Shown here: positions 25,070-47,757 of the stretch, piece by piece
Numbering within the stretch: position 1 is the first letter of the stretch
Layout: each line of letters starts with the position of its first letter
Assembly: GCA_037305845.1 (NCBI GenBank)
Contig: CP147778.1
Span: forward strand, 2,144,001 to 2,208,000
Length of the DNA: 64,000 nucleotides
From: Candidatus Freyarchaeum deiterrae
GTDB lineage: Archaea > Asgardarchaeota > Jordiarchaeia > Jordiarchaeales > Jordiarchaeaceae
Reading direction: 5' to 3'
Program-made: the position numbers and the translations under genes
Notes under the pieces: generated by a model
What the model was told of the DNA's origin: nothing
The model's database searches: none
What the model saw: the letters and a program-made list of their open reading frames with translations, nothing else

Positions 25070-25945
25070 ATGTATCCTCTACCTTTTGATTATTTTTCGC
25101 CAAAAAGTCTCGGCGAAGCTTTGGAGCTTTACGGGGATGGCTCAGAGATTAAAATACTAGCAGGTGGGCAGAGCCTGATACCTTCTCTGAAATTGAGATT
25201 GGTTTCTTTGAAAGGCGTGGTGGATATAACGGGCATCAAAGAACTTGATTATGTACGTAAAGATGAAGACTTGCTTAGGATAGGGGCGTTAACAACTACT
25301 GCCATCTTGGAAAGTGATGAAATAATCGCATCTTCAATGCCCATTCTAAAGGAGGCTGCGGCTCAAATTGCTGACCCCTTAGTAAGGAATAGGGGCACAG
25401 TGGGCGGCAATTTGTGTTATCCTGATCCAGTGTATGATTTGCCAGCGGTGATGCTCGCCTTAAACGCGTCAATGGTTGCGGCTAGCAAAAAGGGAACCAG
25501 AAGGATTAGCGCTGATTCGTTCTTCATAGACTCATTTAAGACCGCATTGAAGCCTGGAGAGATTCTTACCGAAGTCGAGGTGCCGTTGCAGCTGGGCAGG
25601 TTTGGGGGCGCATATTGCAAAGTGAAGAAGGGCTCGGGAGGCTATTCTATTGCTGGCGTCGCGTCCTGTCTTTCAGTTGCGGATGATGATGGTGCCATTT
25701 CTGGATGCCGGATCGGATTGACTGCTGTTGGTCCTAAGGCTCTAAGAGCTGAGAAAGCAGAACAAGCTCTTCTGAAAAGAGTGCCAACGCCATCTACGTT
25801 GGATAAAGCTGCTGCATTGGCTGTAAAGGCTTCAAAGCCGTCTTCTGACTCCAATGCGTCAGAGGGTTATAGGCGCAAGGTGTTATACAAGCTTGTAAAA
25901 GACTCGGTAGAAGCAGCTTATGGCAGGGCAACCCAAGTGAGGTGA
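25070..25945 (+). CDS. Xanthine-dehydrogenase-family FAD subunit (CoxM/CutB-like)
   Basis: LAGGQSLIP, IGALTT and VRNRGTVGGN motifs. Confidence 0.9.
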   Translation: MYPLPFDYFSPKSLGEALELYGDGSEIKILAGGQSLIPSLKLRLVSLKGVVDITGIKELDYVRKDEDLLRIGALTTTAILESDEIIASSMPILKEAAAQIADPLVRNRGTVGGNLCYPDPVYDLPAVMLALNASMVAASKKGTRRISADSFFIDSFKTALKPGEILTEVEVPLQLGRFGGAYCKVKKGSGGYSIAGVASCLSVADDDGAISGCRIGLTAVGPKALRAEKAEQALLKRVPTPSTLDKAAALAVKASKPSSDSNASEGYRRKVLYKLVKDSVEAAYGRATQVR

Positions 25946-25951
25946 CGGGAA

Positions 25952-26425
25952 ATGAAGATAAATTTTAGGGTAAATGGAGAAGATGTTGAACTTGATGTGG
26001 AGCCGAGGAGGCTTCTTGTGAGTGTACTTAGGGATGAGCTTGGGCTCACTGGAACGCATATGGGTTGTGATACTACGAATTGCGGTGCATGTGCTGTCTT
26101 GGTGGATGGCAAGGTAATCAAGTCGTGTACGATGCTTGCGGTTCAGGCGGATGGCAAGGAGATACTTACCATAGAGGGTTTGGCGAAAGAGGGCGAGTTG
26201 CACCCTGTTCAGCGTGCTTTTTTGGAGAAGCATGGATTGCAGTGCGGTTTCTGCACGCCGGGAATGATAATGACGTCTTACTGGCTTCTGAGCCAAAACA
26301 AGGACCAAGATGAGGAGGAGATAAAGAGGCTGCTCTCGGGAAACCTGTGCAGGTGCACGGGTTACCATGGAATTGTAGAGTCTGTAAAATACGCTAGGAT
26401 GCTTATGGAGAAAGAGGGGAGGTAA
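25952..26425 (+). CDS. Xanthine-dehydrogenase-family 2Fe-2S subunit (CoxS/CutC-like)
   Basis: [18 protein letters not shown] and NLCRCTGY motifs. Confidence 0.93.
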
Positions 26426-26429
26426 TGCT

Positions 26430-28457
26430 ATGGGAGGACCTGAATTATTTGTTAGGGGCGCAGGGCGATATGTGGATGATATTAAGTTGCCACACATGCT
26501 GTATATGATGGTAGCTAGGAGCCCTTACGCGAGGGCAAGGGTACTTTCTGTGAAGGGCGGTATTAATAGGGATGATCTGAAGGCGCTTGTAGGTGGGTTT
26601 GGAGAGGGCGGGCGCTCAGATGTTGATCCTGTTTTGCTGCATCCTGTTTTTGCTCAGGATACTGTGAATTATGTCGGTCAGCCGGTTGCTGCGGTGTTTG
26701 CGGATGACCGTTACGTTGCTAGAGACAAGCTGGATGAAGTAGAAGTTGAATATGAGCAGTTGAAGCCTATTATGACTATAGACGACTCTCTTTCCAGCGA
26801 GCCTATTCATGCTGGTACTAAATCAAACATCATACGACAGTCATGGATGGGTGCCGATTTTGAGGATCCCAAGTCTCCTGTTGTACTGGAAGACGAGTTT
26901 ACGATAGGAAGGGTTGTGAATAACCCTCTCGAACCGAGAGGAATAATCGCGGATTATGATGGCTCCAGATTGACCGTTTACATCTCTACACAGGCGGTAT
27001 TCAGCATAAAGGCTGGGTTGTGCAGTGTCCTGAAGCTGGATAGTTCCAAGGTTAGGGTTTTGCAGGCAGACACAGGAGGCGCGTTCGGGTCGAAAAGTGC
27101 GCTATATCCTGAATACGTCATGGCAGCTTACGCGGCAATGAAATACAAGCAACCAGTGAAGTGGATTGAGAGCCGTAGCGAACACCTAGCCGCTAGTCAA
27201 CCAGGCAGAGGCATGCGTGGCAAGATGAAGATATTTGCCGACAAAGATGGAAAGGTTGACGCGTTGCGTGGCGAGGTAACCACAGACGCTGGTGCTTTTG
27301 GCGGGACTTCTGGAACCTCTTCGGCGTTTTTCGTGGCACTGCAGTTGACAGGACCTTATGGAATAGGAAAGGCGTATGTGCAAGCAACTTCCGTTATGAC
27401 GAACAAGCCTCCTCAAGGTCCCTACCGGGGCGCGGGGAGACCGGAGGCTGCTTTCTTCATGGAAAGAATGATGGACCTGCTTGCCGACGAGCTTGGAAAA
27501 GAAGCAGATGAAGTACGCCTCATTAACACCACCACAGAGAGCTTCAAGTCGCCACTTGGCCTACAGATTGAAGCGTCGCGTCCGTTCTATGAGAATGCTG
27601 TTGCCGAGCTAAAGTACAGGGAAAAATCAAAAAGCAGCAAGGCAGGGCTGGGCTTTTTCGTTCTGTTTCCCGCAGCCTTCATGGGGGAGACTGCTAGAAT
27701 AAAAATTAAGGACGGCAAGGTAGACGTTTGGCTCGGAGGAAACCAACACGGCCAGGCACACACTGCCTTTGTAAAGAGATTACTCAATGAAGAACTCGGA
27801 ATCCCCAACGACTTGGTAACGCTAAACAACGGAGACACTGACATGCTTGAGAAAGGCGTCGGAACCTGGGGAAGCAGATCCGCAATCGTGGGCGGGGCAG
27901 CCGTTGTCACCGCAGCCAGAAAATTGAAGGAGCAAGTAGAAAGCGAGCACGGAAGCTACACGACAGAAGCCCTGCTAGAAGGAGATTATAATGCAGAAGT
28001 TTTCTACGACTACAGAGCACAGTTAAACTCCTTCGGCGCAGCCCTCGCAACAGTAAGCATCAATAAGTATGGCATGGTCAACGTAAAAGAGTCTGCAGCT
28101 TGTTACGATGTGGGTAGGGCACTCACCCCCGGCGTAGTAGAAAGCCAGATAATCGGGGGAACTATTCAGGGAATCGGCCAAGTATTGTATGAGAGCGTTG
28201 TGCACGATTCGGAAGGCAGACTGCTGACAAAAAGCCTCTTCGACGCAGGCTTACCCGTAGCCGAAAACATGCCAGAATTCCAAGTCAAGATAATCGAAAA
28301 CCCCTCTTCACTACCTCATGGCGCTAAAGGCCTAGGCGAGGCCCCAACAATAGGCACACCGGTCGCCCTTGTGAGAGCCATCGAAAGAATATCCGGCAAA
28401 AGAATAACGCATACGCCAGTCAAACCTGAAGAATTAATTGAAGATTCAGACACATAA
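26430..28457 (+). CDS. Xanthine-dehydrogenase-family molybdopterin subunit (aldehyde oxidoreductase-like)
   Basis: GGAFGSK, PYRGAGRPEA, GTWGSRS and AKGLGE motifs; lacks the form I CODH AYxCSFR motif. Confidence 0.9.
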   Translation: MGGPELFVRGAGRYVDDIKLPHMLYMMVARSPYARARVLSVKGGINRDDLKALVGGFGEGGRSDVDPVLLHPVFAQDTVNYVGQPVAAVFADDRYVARDKLDEVEVEYEQLKPIMTIDDSLSSEPIHAGTKSNIIRQSWMGADFEDPKSPVVLEDEFTIGRVVNNPLEPRGIIADYDGSRLTVYISTQAVFSIKAGLCSVLKLDSSKVRVLQADTGGAFGSKSALYPEYVMAAYAAMKYKQPVKWIESRSEHLAASQPGRGMRGKMKIFADKDGKVDALRGEVTTDAGAFGGTSGTSSAFFVALQLTGPYGIGKAYVQATSVMTNKPPQGPYRGAGRPEAAFFMERMMDLLADELGKEADEVRLINTTTESFKSPLGLQIEASRPFYENAVAELKYREKSKSSKAGLGFFVLFPAAFMGETARIKIKDGKVDVWLGGNQHGQAHTAFVKRLLNEELGIPNDLVTLNNGDTDMLEKGVGTWGSRSAIVGGAAVVTAARKLKEQVESEHGSYTTEALLEGDYNAEVFYDYRAQLNSFGAALATVSINKYGMVNVKESAACYDVGRALTPGVVESQIIGGTIQGIGQVLYESVVHDSEGRLLTKSLFDAGLPVAENMPEFQVKIIENPSSLPHGAKGLGEAPTIGTPVALVRAIERISGKRITHTPVKPEELIEDSDT

Positions 28458-28609
28458 CTTACACTTTTTTAACAGCAAAGAGATCTAGGCACGCCAAGGC
28501 TGCAAGGCTAAACTAATTATTATTCAACTTTTGATTAGTTGTTTCAAATTATCGCTAGGACGGGGATGCTCAATTCACCTTTCTCCACGTTCAATGAAAA
28601 GCATCCTAG

Positions 28610-29413
28610 GTGAGTGGCATGATTACAGACTTGAAAATTTTGAATGAAGCGGCGCATCTATTGGAAAATGGAACTAGACTTGCGTTGTGCACGGTTATCG
28701 AGAAAAGGGGTTCAGGGCCTAGAGATGTTGGTGCGAAAATGATTGTTGGGGAAGACGAAAAGACTTATGGGACTATTGGGGGAGGTGCCCTTGAGAGAGC
28801 TTTGGTCAACGAGTGCATGAAAGCTTTGGAAGAAGGCAAATCAAGAAGAGTTACTTTCAACATGACGAGGGAAAAGAAAGAGGGAATGGTTGAAACGGGT
28901 CTGATATGCGGAGGCGAATTAACTGTGTTTGTTGACGTATTAGAACCAGATTTAAGGTTAATAATAGTGGGTTCTGGTCATGTAGCGTTGCCCTTAGCGA
29001 GACTAGCCGAAATTGTAGGATTTAAAACACTCATAGTTGATGATGACATCGACCTAGCCAACAAAGAGCGATTTCCAATGGCTGAAAGAATCATTACTGG
29101 CGATTTTGCCAAAATATTGAATGAGCTTGATGTAGGCTCCAACGACTCTGTCGTCATTGCTCACGGCGAACCTGAACATGATTACAAGGCATTAGAGAAG
29201 ATGATTGAAAAAAAACCCGCCTACATTGGACTGCTTGGAAGCCGGACGAAAGTTGCGATACTCGTTCAGAGGCTTCGAAAGCAAGGAATCAGCGAGGCAC
29301 AATTGAAGATATTACACGCACCCTTAGGCTTGGACATTGGGGCTCAGACCCCTGAAGAAATCGGAATAAGCGTACTCGCCGAGATTATCCAGAGCAAAAG
29401 AAAAAGAACATGA
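28610..29413 (+). CDS. xdhC: XdhC/CoxI Moco-insertion chaperone
   Basis: GSGPR..GAKM, GTIGGG..E, CGG, YIGLLGS and GAQTPEEI motifs. Confidence 0.9.
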   Translation: MSGMITDLKILNEAAHLLENGTRLALCTVIEKRGSGPRDVGAKMIVGEDEKTYGTIGGGALERALVNECMKALEEGKSRRVTFNMTREKKEGMVETGLICGGELTVFVDVLEPDLRLIIVGSGHVALPLARLAEIVGFKTLIVDDDIDLANKERFPMAERIITGDFAKILNELDVGSNDSVVIAHGEPEHDYKALEKMIEKKPAYIGLLGSRTKVAILVQRLRKQGISEAQLKILHAPLGLDIGAQTPEEIGISVLAEIIQSKRKRT

Positions 29414-29450
29414 ACATAGCACGAATCACTTACTTGAGTATTTACGGTTC

Positions 29451-30068
29451 TCAAATGCCATAGCTACCAGTTTTTATTAGACTGCGAGCGCGAGCCAAGT
29501 CTTCAGGAGTGTCTATGTCCATAATGGACCACTCCGGTGCCTCGATTGTGAACAGTTTGTCAGCATGCCTATTAACAACGTCTCGTATTGTCTCGGGGTT
29601 TTTCAAAGCTAGTATTTCGCCGAAAAGCTCCTTATGAAAGAGCAGCGGATGACCTTTCTTCCCCTTATGTATTGGACTCACAATCCATGCTTTGTCTACA
29701 TTGTTCTCCATCTGTTCAATCATAACGTTCAAAAAGTTCTTGTCAAGAATAGGTTCGTCTCCAAGAACCAAAAATGCAGCGTCAACATGACGCATTAGTC
29801 GCAGTCCCTTTTGAAAAGATGAAATCATCCCCTGTTCATAGTCATCATTTATAACCGTCTTAATATCTTCTAACCATGGCTTTATGGCTTCGATTATCTG
29901 CTGAGGTTCGTGTCCTAACACAATTACTTTTTCATCTGCGTCCGTAGCTGCTATTGCATCCAAAACATTCCCTATCAAAGTATCATCATTCAGACGCAGC
30001 AGGAGCTTGTTTTGCCCCATCCTTTCGGATTTACCGGCTGCTAGAACAATTGCTGCGGTAATTATCAT
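29451..30068 (-). CDS. mocA: Molybdenum cofactor cytidylyltransferase-like nucleotidyltransferase
   Basis: LAAGKSERMGQNKLL, LGDEP, GHPLLF and DIDTPED motifs; adjacent to the XDH cassette. Confidence 0.85.
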   Translation of the reverse strand: MIITAAIVLAAGKSERMGQNKLLLRLNDDTLIGNVLDAIAATDADEKVIVLGHEPQQIIEAIKPWLEDIKTVINDDYEQGMISSFQKGLRLMRHVDAAFLVLGDEPILDKNFLNVMIEQMENNVDKAWIVSPIHKGKKGHPLLFHKELFGEILALKNPETIRDVVNRHADKLFTIEAPEWSIMDIDTPEDLARARSLIKTGSYGI

Positions 30069-30253
30069 CAACACCTCCCATGCCGAAAATAGCGCCATCC
30101 TCTCTGGGGTTGCACCAAACGTCGTGACTATTGCTTCCTAGTTGATTGCACCAAAATATAACCATATTCAAGTATATAACTATGCTCAACGAAAATCGCG
30201 GCAAAAAAATAAAAACAAAAAAGAGAAGGGGAAAGCCCCGAAACTAAATTCCT

Positions 30254-31647
30254 TCACACTATTTTACTCGTCTTCCAAGTGCCCAAGGCACGACCGAGCT
30301 CCTTGTGATCCTCAGCATACTTCTCCAACGGTATACCCTGCACAGAAGCGTCGATAGCCTGACGAAAAGAAGTAGCACCAGCACGAGGACCATCAGGATG
30401 CGCATGAATAGCGCCACCAACACCTACTATGAAATCCTTACCGAGATCCGCCATAATCTGAGGAACAATCTGAACAATGACACCACCAGCAGGCATAGGC
30501 AAAGTAGGCTTCAAATGATAGAACGGAAACGTCAACTCACGCCAAACCTGCAGATAAGTCTCCTTCATGAAAGGAGCTTTTCTGGAGGCTCGGGAACTAC
30601 TTGCACTCAATGTGCGAAATCAGTCTCCCGAATTCCTATTCCAAAGGGCGCTGGGTTAAAATTTTAACAGGGAAGTCCTGTTAAATATACTTCCATGTCA
30701 GCGCCGGCTAGTCTGCAGAATTTTCCTAGTATGAGTCTGGCGTCTACTCCGTATTCTGGTGATGCGTAGTGTACTGCTGCATAGTCTGTGTGTGCTAAAA
30801 CTGGTACTTTTATGCTGGGGTCTTCTGCTAGGTCTCTGAATGTTTCGTATCCTGTTGTGATGATGTTGACCATTAGTGCGTTTGCTCCTAGGTCTATGGC
30901 TTTTTCTGCTAGTTCTAGTGTTTTTTTGGGTCGGTCGGTTATGTTGACTGTGTAGAGTGTTTTTTCTCCTTTTTCTTCGTCTGCTTTGTCGATTGCTTCC
31001 ATGAATTTTACTACCCGGTCTTCTACTCGGTTTAGTTCCATGTCTGCTAGTAGTTCATCGTCTTTGATGAAGTCTACTCCGCCTGCTGCGACTTCGTATG
31101 CTAGGTCTGCTCCTATTTCGCAGGGTGAGTAGACGCAGGGTTTTATCATGTTGTTTAGTATGGGTCGGTCTTTTACTCCCAGTATCTCTCTTACTCCTTT
31201 TATTCCGAATTTTGGTCCTTTGAATCCGCTTACCCATTTTTTGGGGAATTGGAGGTCCAGTAGTTTTATTTTTCCGGCAGCGGAGAGGTTTCCGACTACT
31301 GTGCTCAGGAGTACGGGTAGGTTGGGGTAGCCGAGGTTGGTTATGGGGTACGCGATTTTTATTATCCAGTGTCTTTCTTCTGTTTTTGGTAGCTGCCATT
31401 GGTGTGGTGGGATTTCGAATACTGCTGTTACTCGGGCTGCGTGCAGTCTTCTGACTTCGGGTGTTTCTTTGGGTACGGGTGTCCAGGTTCCGGTGCTTTG
31501 TTCTAGGGCTGCTGCTACGCCCATTGTGTATCCGTCTAGCCATGAGGGCTGGGTTGTGTAGTATGTGGCTATTATGTTTTCTTCGGGGTCTATGCCTTCG
31601 GGTAGTGCTTCCATTGATGTTAATAATTCATAATCTTTTTCGCCCAA
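30254..31647 (-). CDS. RuBisCO-like protein (form IV), spliced from 3 exons: 31647-30687, 30656-30639, 30579-30254
   Basis: EQSTGTW, GPKFGI.G.R, MIKP, GGVDFIKDDELL and HAHPDG..AGA motifs. Removing the 30- and 59-nt inserts gives a continuous 434-aa ORF reading GADMEVYPAPFGKAPF. TTG start follows GGAGG. Confidence 0.88.
30580..30638 (-). other. Putative BHB mRNA intron (59 nt), RLP intron 2
   Basis: Central helix UUGG/CCAG, bulges AAU and AAA, long internal stem. Canonical cuts give GGA A|AA GCU (G-K-A). Confidence 0.85.
30657..30686 (-). other. Putative BHB mRNA intron (30 nt), RLP intron 1
   Basis: Central helix AAGU/AUUU, bulges AUA and UAA, perfect 9-bp inner stem, exon-exon stem GG/CC plus GGCGCUG/CAGCGCC. 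Cuts give GUA U|AC CCA (V-Y-P). Confidence 0.87.
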
Positions 31648-31825
31648 CTTTTTTCCTCCATTTTTAATCAAGTTTATTCGTGGTTGTAGAACTTTTAAAG
31701 TTTTGTTAAGCTCATTTTGTTGTGTGGTTTTGGTTTTCGAGGATTTTAGATAGTTTTTTAAAGGAATTTCGCGTTCTATCTATGAACAGATTCTTGCCGC
31801 TTGTGGTGGGTTAAGAACAGGAGGT

Positions 31826-46523: not shown

Positions 46524-47757
46524 TTACTTCATCCCTTTGGCTGATACGATTCTAATAATATCTCTGTCCTTTAGTTCCGCGTTCTCAGATAACCTGATCC
46601 TCTTTCTGGCATCTTCTGCGTAGATGAAGGTTTCACCGAGGTCGGTGTGTACTGCGTAGGCTAGTTCTTTTGCTGTTGTTCCTTTTGGTACTAGGTATAC
46701 GTCGGGTAGAACGTTTCCGTTGTGGTCGCTGTATTTGTTCGCGTCTTCGACTGGATATACTGCGATCATGTTGAGTACTCCGAAAACCATTTGGTTGAGG
46801 GTTTCCTGTATTCCCGTGGAGCCGTATTTGCTTAGTATTTCTTCGCGTATTTTTTCTAAAACTGGTTTCTGGTTCTGGGGTATTTTGTCCGGTTTTAAGA
46901 TCTTAAATTCGGAGTCGCCGGGTCTGTATTCAATCGCTCCATCTTCTGCTAGTTTTCTGAGCATGTATTCTGCGAGTGAGCTTGCTGGTACGACTTTTCC
47001 TTTTTTCTTGAGTTTTTCTAGGTTTTGTACTGATGTTTTTCGGTCTATTTTGTTTGCGCATATCAGCATTGGTTTTGAAGCTTTTTGCAGTTCTCGTGAA
47101 AAATTGTATATTTGGTCATCGTTCCAGGCTTTGGGTTTTTCCGGGTCGAGTTTTGCGTTTTGTAAAGCTTTTTTGATGTGGGCTCTCTTTATTGCTAATC
47201 CCGATAATCTGTCTATAAGGAGTTCATCTAGCTTCCCTTTGGATGTATCTACTTCCCTAGCTATCTTTGGCCATTCACGTGTTATTATCTGTTTGAACCA
47301 CATTGCGATTTCTTTTTCAAGAAAGTCTACTTCCTCCTCCGGGTTTCCTGTTCCTGGTTCGATAGGTTTCCCCTCGAGGTCTGTGGCTCCTGATGCGTCA
47401 ACTACCTGTATTAATGCGTCGGCGCGTCGAAGGTCGTCCAGAAATTGGTTTCCTAATCCGCGTCCCTGCCAAGCGTCGGGCACCAGTCCTGCGACGTCGA
47501 GCAAGTTTACTGGTATGTAGCGTATGCCATCTACGCATATGGAGTTTTTGCAATTGTCTTTCACTCCGAGTTCTTTGCATACGCAATCTATTCGAACATA
47601 GCCCGTTCCTTGTTGGGCGTTTATTGTTGTAAAGGGATAGTCCGCTACCTTGTATTCTGTTAGGCAAGCCGCGTTCAGAAAAGTGGTTTATCGGTCCAAT
47701 GCACTATTTCGTGCGTTGGATTCCCGAATTAGGCTTACCTACAATTCCCACCAACAT
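46524..47757 (-). CDS. ychF: YchF/Obg-family translation-associated GTPase/ATPase, spliced from exons 47757-47721 and 47689-46524
   Basis: After removing 31 nt the frame reads MLVGIVGKPNSGKTTFLNA...DYPFTTI...DVAGLV...GLGNQFLDDL...NKID, with a C-terminal TGS domain; 400 aa. Confidence 0.9.
47690..47720 (-). other. Putative BHB-like mRNA intron (31 nt) in ychF
   Basis: Hairpin insert CCAA-C-GCAC/GUGC-A-UUGG carrying an in-frame UAG. A unique 31-nt excision restores GGA A|AA ACC; the central helix has one G.A mismatch in that register. Confidence 0.8.

Follow-up and report, generated by a model that had tools for sequence, protein, structure and literature searches.

Can a coding sequence that is interrupted twice, with only 18 nucleotides between the two interruptions, be restored by splicing of the archaeal tRNA type, and, if so, does it give rise to one product or to several? 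The question is raised by a gene for a RuBisCO-like protein (RLP) of Candidatus Freyarchaeum deiterrae, which lies in a 64,000-nt stretch of contig CP147778.1 (the window; coordinates refer to it unless another sequence is named). A preliminary description of this DNA had proposed a three-exon mRNA with two BHB introns and a micro-exon that would allow ordered splicing or in-frame exon skipping. Here we consider the structure of the locus, its state in related genomes, and the products that splicing could deliver.

The gene and its interruptions

The genome is a single contig of 3,576,204 bases with a G+C content of 40.7%, and its closest named relatives are Jordarchaeia/Freyarchaeota records (Asgard). 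The complete genome of Ca. Freyarchaeum has been reported to measure 3.58 Mbp and to carry introns in 92–95% of its tRNA genes (PMC11291895). The RLP gene occupies 31647–30254 on the minus strand, with a TTG start at 31647 and GGAGG at 31659–31655, and is the only close copy in the genome. Both of its open frames match Pfam RuBisCO_large; databases list the unspliced product as a protein of 327 aa (P0121) and annotate the downstream ORF (80–118 aa) as well. The features proposed for the gene are as follows (a slash marks a junction or a point of insertion, a caret the cut within a bulge).

30687..31647, minus strand: exon 1 of the RLP gene, ending in phase 1 (GUA U/); Pfam RuBisCO_large_N and RuBisCO_large
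30693..30705, minus strand: exon-1 arm of the exon 1–exon 2 duplex (2 bp + 7 bp); the 7-bp part is predicted to be 0.99–1.00 populated
30657..30686, minus strand: intron 1, 30 nt, canonical BHB; helix AAGU with AUUU, bulges AU^A and UA^A
30639..30656, minus strand: micro-exon, 18 nt, coding for (Y)-P-A-P-F-G-(K) in the loop-6 region of the RuBisCO fold
30580..30638, minus strand: intron 2, 59 nt, BHB; helix UUGG with CCAG, bulges AA^U and AA^A
30254..30579, minus strand: exon 3, the C-terminal part of the RLP barrel up to the stop codon; Pfam RuBisCO_large positions 215–299

Each insert can be drawn as a BHB motif, that is, a 4-bp central helix (with one G-U pair) between two 3-nt bulges on opposite strands. 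Intron 1 has an inner stem of 9 bp and an outer stem of 2 + 7 bp; the inner stem of intron 2 comprises 3 bp and a long hairpin, and its outer stem, of only 2 bp, is about 1% populated. Retention of intron 1 introduces an in-frame UAA, and retention of intron 2 shifts the frame. Cutting each bulge after its second base restores 434 aa from the TTG at 31647, the length of the intact homologues P0002 and P0005; the spliced product contains the conserved loop EVYPAPFGKAPF and is collinear with its intron-less homologues. Double removal gives the same type of product in L284, a relative that carries both inserts. Spliceosomal ends (GU-AG or AU-AC) are absent: intron 1 starts with AU and ends with UA, while intron 2 starts with UA and ends with AA.

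The best structure match for an intact homologue is PDB 2OEK (E 2.5e-81), a 2,3-diketo-5-methylthiopentyl-1-phosphate enolase and form IV RLP, whose FPSPYG aligns with YPAPYG; it is the nearest solved structure. Unlike RLPs of the MtnW type, however, the intact homologue scores 364 against a cut-off of 409 (NF007095) and 312 against 514 (TIGR03332), and it also falls under the NCBIfam cut-off for form III RuBisCO. Judged by these similarities the intact homologue is nearest to the form IV RuBisCO-like enolases, yet below the curated mtnW cut-offs. The neighbours downstream (25070–30098) comprise a molybdopterin oxidoreductase cluster, XdhC and a MobA-like transferase; upstream lie genes for an SCP2 protein, a cysteinyl-tRNA synthetase and DUF2070.

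The micro-exon as predicted splice-site structure

The micro-exon had been placed at 30639–30656, with its nucleotides 2–10 assigned to the outer stem of intron 1 and nucleotides 11–18 to the motif of intron 2. The location holds to the nucleotide (on the minus strand), and the pairing is right base for base. Nucleotide 1 is the third base of the intron-1 3' bulge; nucleotides 2–3 pair with 30693–30694 and nucleotides 4–10 with 30699–30705, making 9 bp in total with a 4-nt bulge in exon 1. Nucleotides 11–12 form the 2-bp outer stem of intron 2, nucleotides 13–16 (UUGG) its central helix with CCAG, and nucleotides 17–18 supply bases 1 and 2 of its 5' bulge. No base is used by both motifs, and they can form simultaneously.

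The exon 1–exon 2 duplex, with a predicted binding energy of −11.9 kcal/mol, is conserved in relatives only in part. A strain or sequencing variant in L279 (window 30705 and 30703; GGC to TGT) replaces Gly by Cys in AGAD and weakens this duplex. A long helix between exons 1 and 3 is also predicted; it shows no covariation and is present in intron-less genes too, and for these reasons it is not counted as evidence.

In alignments the encoded peptide falls opposite FPSPYGS of 2OEK and opposite SGTAAGK of a second RuBisCO homologue in the same genome. The codon of the loop-6 lysine is interrupted by intron 2 (A/AA); this lysine aligns with GK of that second homologue, and we take it to be the equivalent of spinach Lys334. 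Phenylalanine at the micro-exon position is rare (2 of 128 proteins). The idea that intron 2 forced the change from Tyr to Phe was dropped: in L284 Tyr is retained and the intron end covaries, and in P0148 Phe occurs although the insert is missing.

Both intron hairpins are present in the minimum-energy fold, with z = −4.5 and −3.5 relative to base shuffles, and the complete BHBs are predicted to be just 1.5–2.4% populated in free RNA. The low folding probability obtained with 40-nt flanks is a truncation artefact of the folding window.

It might be supposed that the inserts are something other than BHB introns: remnants of group I or II introns, a miniature transposon, or an artefact of assembly. 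Intron 2, a long imperfect inverted repeat, lends itself to such a reading. Nevertheless, the 64-kb window holds no Rfam match, and inserts of 30 and 59 nt are far too short for a ribozyme core, which takes hundreds of bases; no second copy of intron 1 exists in the genome (the best match is 14 nt). Four independent Logan assemblies are identical across the region and a fifth differs just at two exon-1 bases, so assembly error is excluded. We regard this group of explanations as extremely improbable. A search for tRNA matches to the two inserts was likewise negative.

Presence and absence among relatives

Genomes G003–G005, 87–88% identical to the Freyarchaeum gene (G000), are without exactly these 89 nt; the lengths and positions of the inserts are thus fixed independently by intron-less relatives. 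All four possible states (neither intron, intron 1 only, intron 2 only, both) are seen. Intron 1 is absent from G003–G005, L272 and L283, and is present alone in G002, L056, L057, L269, L278 and L282. Intron 2 alone is found at the DNA level in G040 (a 32-nt insert, in another order), and read-through peptides imply it for P0138 and P0144. Both inserts occur in G000 and L284 (DNA) and in P0147 (read-through peptide). That intron 2 is a recent gain of G000 alone is refuted by the inserts in L284, P0147, P0138, P0144 and G040. The protein P0148, encoded by a contig of 556 nt (GCA_036704725.1; DNA or cDNA), reads MEVYPAPFGKAPF unbroken, and 112 of 117 residues are identical to the spliced G000 product.

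L284 is a two-intron relative known from DNA: it is 91% identical, its inserts measure 30 and 65 nt, the latter being homologous to intron 2, and its micro-exon is retained at 18 nt. Six further sequence types have intron 1 where G000 has it. Across six sequence types, 53 of the 54 cells of its inner stem are paired, both partners have changed at positions 2, 5 and 9, and every DNA copy contains an in-frame stop. The central helix of intron 2 is altered on both sides, from UUGG with CCAG (and Phe) in G000 to ACGG with ACGU (and Tyr) in L284. In both introns, then, BHB structure is kept while the sequence varies, over a small number of independent lineages.

Intact 434-aa and intron-truncated 324-aa forms share 90% clusters (P0004/P0125; P0005/P0128), showing intron 1 to be polymorphic among very close relatives. 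In a sister clade (L056, L269, L278, L282) intron 1 is 33 nt long, its helix has 3 bp, and its 3' loop is enlarged and rich in A; a strict cut would leave three of the four with a stop, which implies a relaxed 3' site. Partial extra copies of the RLP 3' end occur in L006/L027, L259 and L258, downstream of the gene or apart from it, and one such copy in G040 (C285) begins exactly at the intron-2 site. The RLP genes of another Asgard family (L009:1159-1185, L011:1116-1136; G031, G021) carry a 28-nt BHB-like insert at SGGG/IHAHP, and in that of G021 (L011:1430-1435) there is another insert, some 22 nt long, close to residue 280.

Selection on the interrupted gene

A rival reading takes the gene for a dead one, inactivated by hairpin insertions that only look like BHB motifs. 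Several observations would suit a pseudogene: the motifs of intron 2 are imperfect, L279 has the Gly to Cys change in the conserved AGAD motif, and intron-bearing lineages have somewhat longer protein branches than G003–G005. Against this, the 14 spliced sequences contain no other stop or frameshift, and the comparison of G000 with L284 gives dN/dS values of 0.24 for exon 1 and 0.11 for exon 3 (21.5 synonymous versus 9.5 non-synonymous differences). The value for exon 3 means that the part downstream of both inserts has been under purifying selection while both were present, and this already disfavours a pseudogene. Codon changes private to G000 are 13 synonymous and 3 non-synonymous, there are compensatory pairs in the introns, and the genome has no other close copy of the gene. 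We therefore consider a dead gene very unlikely.

A live gene could, on the other hand, have its protein restored without RNA splicing, through ribosome bypass, frameshifting or DNA excision, or its two halves could be made separately. Stable hairpins at both sites, and a downstream ORF called by databases, are compatible with such schemes. However, although insert lengths vary (30 and 33 nt; 28–65 nt), the BHB geometry and the precise borders of the exons are maintained, and the block as a whole has neither a BHB nor a repeat. Were the halves made separately, loop 6 would be lost; the micro-exon is nonetheless conserved, with three synonymous differences and one non-synonymous difference from L284. 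Restoration by these routes is, in our estimation, also highly improbable.

The three-exon mRNA with two BHB introns is well supported as far as sequence comparison goes, by the reading frame, the intron-less relatives, L284 and dN/dS. We put at roughly 90% the probability that the RLP mRNA is constitutively spliced twice, by EndA and RtcB, to give a single protein of 434 aa.

Predicted products of splicing

The genome contains two genes of the EndA family (PF01974), one with Tyr/His/Lys and one without the His, and one RtcB gene; the former pair is consistent with a two-subunit enzyme. We infer that such an enzyme would cleave every 3-nt bulge behind its second base, that the micro-exon would remain paired to exon 1 after both cuts, and that RtcB would ligate the exons into the message for the 434-aa RuBisCO-like protein. 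The micro-exon would be constitutive, with both introns removed in either order, and may have arisen from two independent intron sites six codons apart in loop 6.

The in-frame exon skipping that had been envisaged is not borne out. Because both junctions are in phase 1, joining exon 1 to exon 3 gives GUA U/AA, a stop after residue 320, in G000 and in L284 alike; no in-frame isoform can result. Nor is ordered splicing required: the predicted folding probability of either intron is unchanged once the other has been removed, and since the two BHBs fold independently no order is forced, although a kinetic preference is possible. Breaking the exon 1–exon 2 duplex in silico lowers the folding of intron 2 only from 0.33 to 0.22. 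For removal of the 107-nt block as one unit, which the preliminary description had named as a contrary outcome, no BHB can be drawn, whichever shift between −3 and +3 is taken. Every incomplete product, whether an intron is retained, the exon is skipped or the intron-2 cut has slipped, stops at residue 320–336 and loses the loop-6 lysine or everything after it.

Choice of register at intron 2

For intron 1 the productive register is the only or the dominant cleavable fold predicted. For intron 2 of G000, a register slipped by one base (+1; 57 nt, frameshift) is predicted to be populated at 0.56 versus 0.33 for the in-frame register; in L284 the corresponding values are 0.31 for a frameshifting −1 register and 0.011 for the in-frame one, whose helix has a G·A mismatch. 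The in-frame register is the only one open to both G000 and L284, and the only one with A as the first base of both bulges. Among 15 candidate introns (partly prefiltered), the first bulge base is A in 27 of 30 bulges and G in 0 of 30, and the Val codon is GTA in all intron-1 carriers and GTT in all intron-less genes. Structures of EndA have the first bulge base stacked between Arg/Trp residues (PMC12397907). Our hypothesis is that the enzyme favours the in-frame register, possibly through a preference of EndA for A as the first bulge base.

A slipped register exists for the cbf5 intron of the genome too. Elsewhere in the window, the gene for a YGR210/YchF-like Obg GTPase carries a 31-nt hairpin insert in its P-loop (47690–47720, minus strand; GKPNSG/KT) that is absent from G001–G005 and G009. 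The register that makes a perfect BHB there would remove 33 nt and shift the frame; the register that keeps the frame makes a weaker motif, with A as the first base of both bulges.

Splicing may also be real but inefficient or regulated: intron retention, a slipped intron-2 cut or exon skipping would send some of the mRNA into truncated products and make the micro-exon region an on/off or dosage gate for the enzyme. This proposal is an addition to double splicing. The competing frameshifting registers in intron 2 of G000 and L284 and in the GTPase intron speak for it, as does the truncation of each incomplete product. It is weakened by the fact that the competing register is +1 in G000 and −1 in L284, and hence not conserved; by the slipped register of the cbf5 intron; and by the absence of one or both introns from close relatives, which suggests that the introns are dispensable. 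As a selected function, a gate seems to us unlikely, if worth keeping in mind. Constitutive double splicing, on current evidence, is the reading with which we proceed.

Candidate BHB introns elsewhere in the genome

The genome was scanned for pairs of strong BHB motifs lying 7–45 nt apart whose removal rescues a coding frame. The RLP locus was the sole hit, against 1 and 0 in wrong-frame controls; the scan detects strong motifs only, and its thresholds were loosened until the RLP locus passed. The genome has more than 10 other coding BHB candidates, cbf5 included, and a strict scan for introns of up to 40 nt returned 11 compared with 2 and 5 in wrong-frame controls. A census in which the genome was aligned to 2.25 Mb of G003 to find introns common to both (353/372/336 and 55/55/44) showed no excess over wrong-frame controls and is therefore unusable. 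Clean frame-rescuing candidates of 28–34 nt are located on G000 C1 at 1125569(+), 1145015(-), 1589381(-), 1619887(+), 2285374(+), 2458220(+), 2494680(+) and 2636190(-).

A strand-composition switch at the micro-exon

The micro-exon coincides with an abrupt change in base composition.

30639..30660, no strand assigned: switch in strand composition, from 91% A/C at third codon positions to 84% G/T

The cumulative minimum falls at 30644, within the micro-exon, and 12 relatives switch at codons 315–327, with or without introns. The site stands at the 99.7–99.9th percentile of the genome and is one of about 200 such peaks. The ahcY gene, the other multi-intron gene covered here, is on a strong A/C-to-G/T switch too. 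Of 16 intron sites, 7 lie above the 90th percentile at 300-nt windows, and fewer do at wider windows; the sample is small, was picked post hoc and is unmatched for gene position, so that the association between switches and introns is a lead only.

The position of the switch inside the micro-exon, the switch at ahcY and the existence of all four presence/absence states prompt the conjecture that the site is a hot spot of repeated intron gain and loss, driven by a strand-specific DNA process that leaves an A/C-to-G/T switch behind. We hold this to be doubtful. If true, it would tie the turnover of Asgard mRNA introns to DNA repair or gene conversion, and would offer a spliceosome-free way to multi-exon genes of the eukaryotic kind.

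Comparison with known systems

The literature searched, in which subscription journals are sparsely covered, yielded no published three-exon archaeal BHB mRNA, Asgard mRNA intron or archaeal microexon; archaeal mRNA introns of the tRNA type are represented there by single ones only (cbf5 and one 5'-UTR case). What appears to be new, on comparative grounds, is a two-intron layout conserved under selection, with all four presence/absence states and covariation between exon and intron. A conserved coding gene of three exons in Asgard archaea, the prokaryotes most closely related to eukaryotes, would mean that multi-exon mRNAs, even with an exon of 18 bases, can persist under selection without a spliceosome. 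With a short in vitro substrate, it makes testable the choice of EndA between slipped registers, the preservation of exon order by RtcB, and the coevolution of a coding exon with the pairing of introns. There is also a practical consequence: since gene callers split such genes (here into 327 aa and 80–118 aa), Asgard proteomes are mis-annotated at these loci.

The nearest precedent is the cbf5 pre-mRNA of Crenarchaeota, which has a single BHB intron and for which spliced cDNA has been shown (Watanabe 2002; Yokobori 2009, PMC2738675). As in cbf5, the RLP introns are short coding BHB introns, for which a hetero-oligomeric EndA would cleave each bulge between bases 2 and 3, and an intron falls inside a functionally central codon (the catalytic Asp of cbf5; the loop-6 Lys of the RLP). 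Where crenarchaeal cbf5 has one intron and two exons, however, the RLP gene, a metabolic gene in an Asgard host, has two introns around an 18-nt exon that is almost wholly splice-site structure, and its splicing is predicted only. A second precedent is the BHB intron in the 5'-UTR of HVO_1309 in Haloferax volcanii, reported with cbf5 as the only other known mRNA case (Schwarz 2020, PMC7714728). It too makes an mRNA the substrate of the tRNA splicing endonuclease, but it is a single intron in an untranslated region, whereas the RLP introns are two and lie in coding sequence.

Several closely spaced BHB introns in one transcript are known from multi-intron pre-tRNAs, described in Thermoproteales, in Asgard archaea (PMC11291895; bioRxiv 10.64898/2026.10.13.758758) and in Cyanidioschyzon (PMC3728597), where BHBs that are independent of one another can nonetheless be removed in a favoured sequence set by their stability (PMC3728597). 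In pre-tRNAs the cloverleaf holds the exons; in the RLP mRNA, by contrast, the coding exon meets the constraints of protein and pairing together, and the motifs are not nested. Finally, the RLP micro-exon resembles the spliceosomal microexons of eukaryotes (reviewed in PMC13149111) in being a very short internal coding exon with a length that is a multiple of three. It differs from them in having neither GU-AG ends nor a spliceosome, and in that skipping it leads to a stop codon and not to a second isoform.
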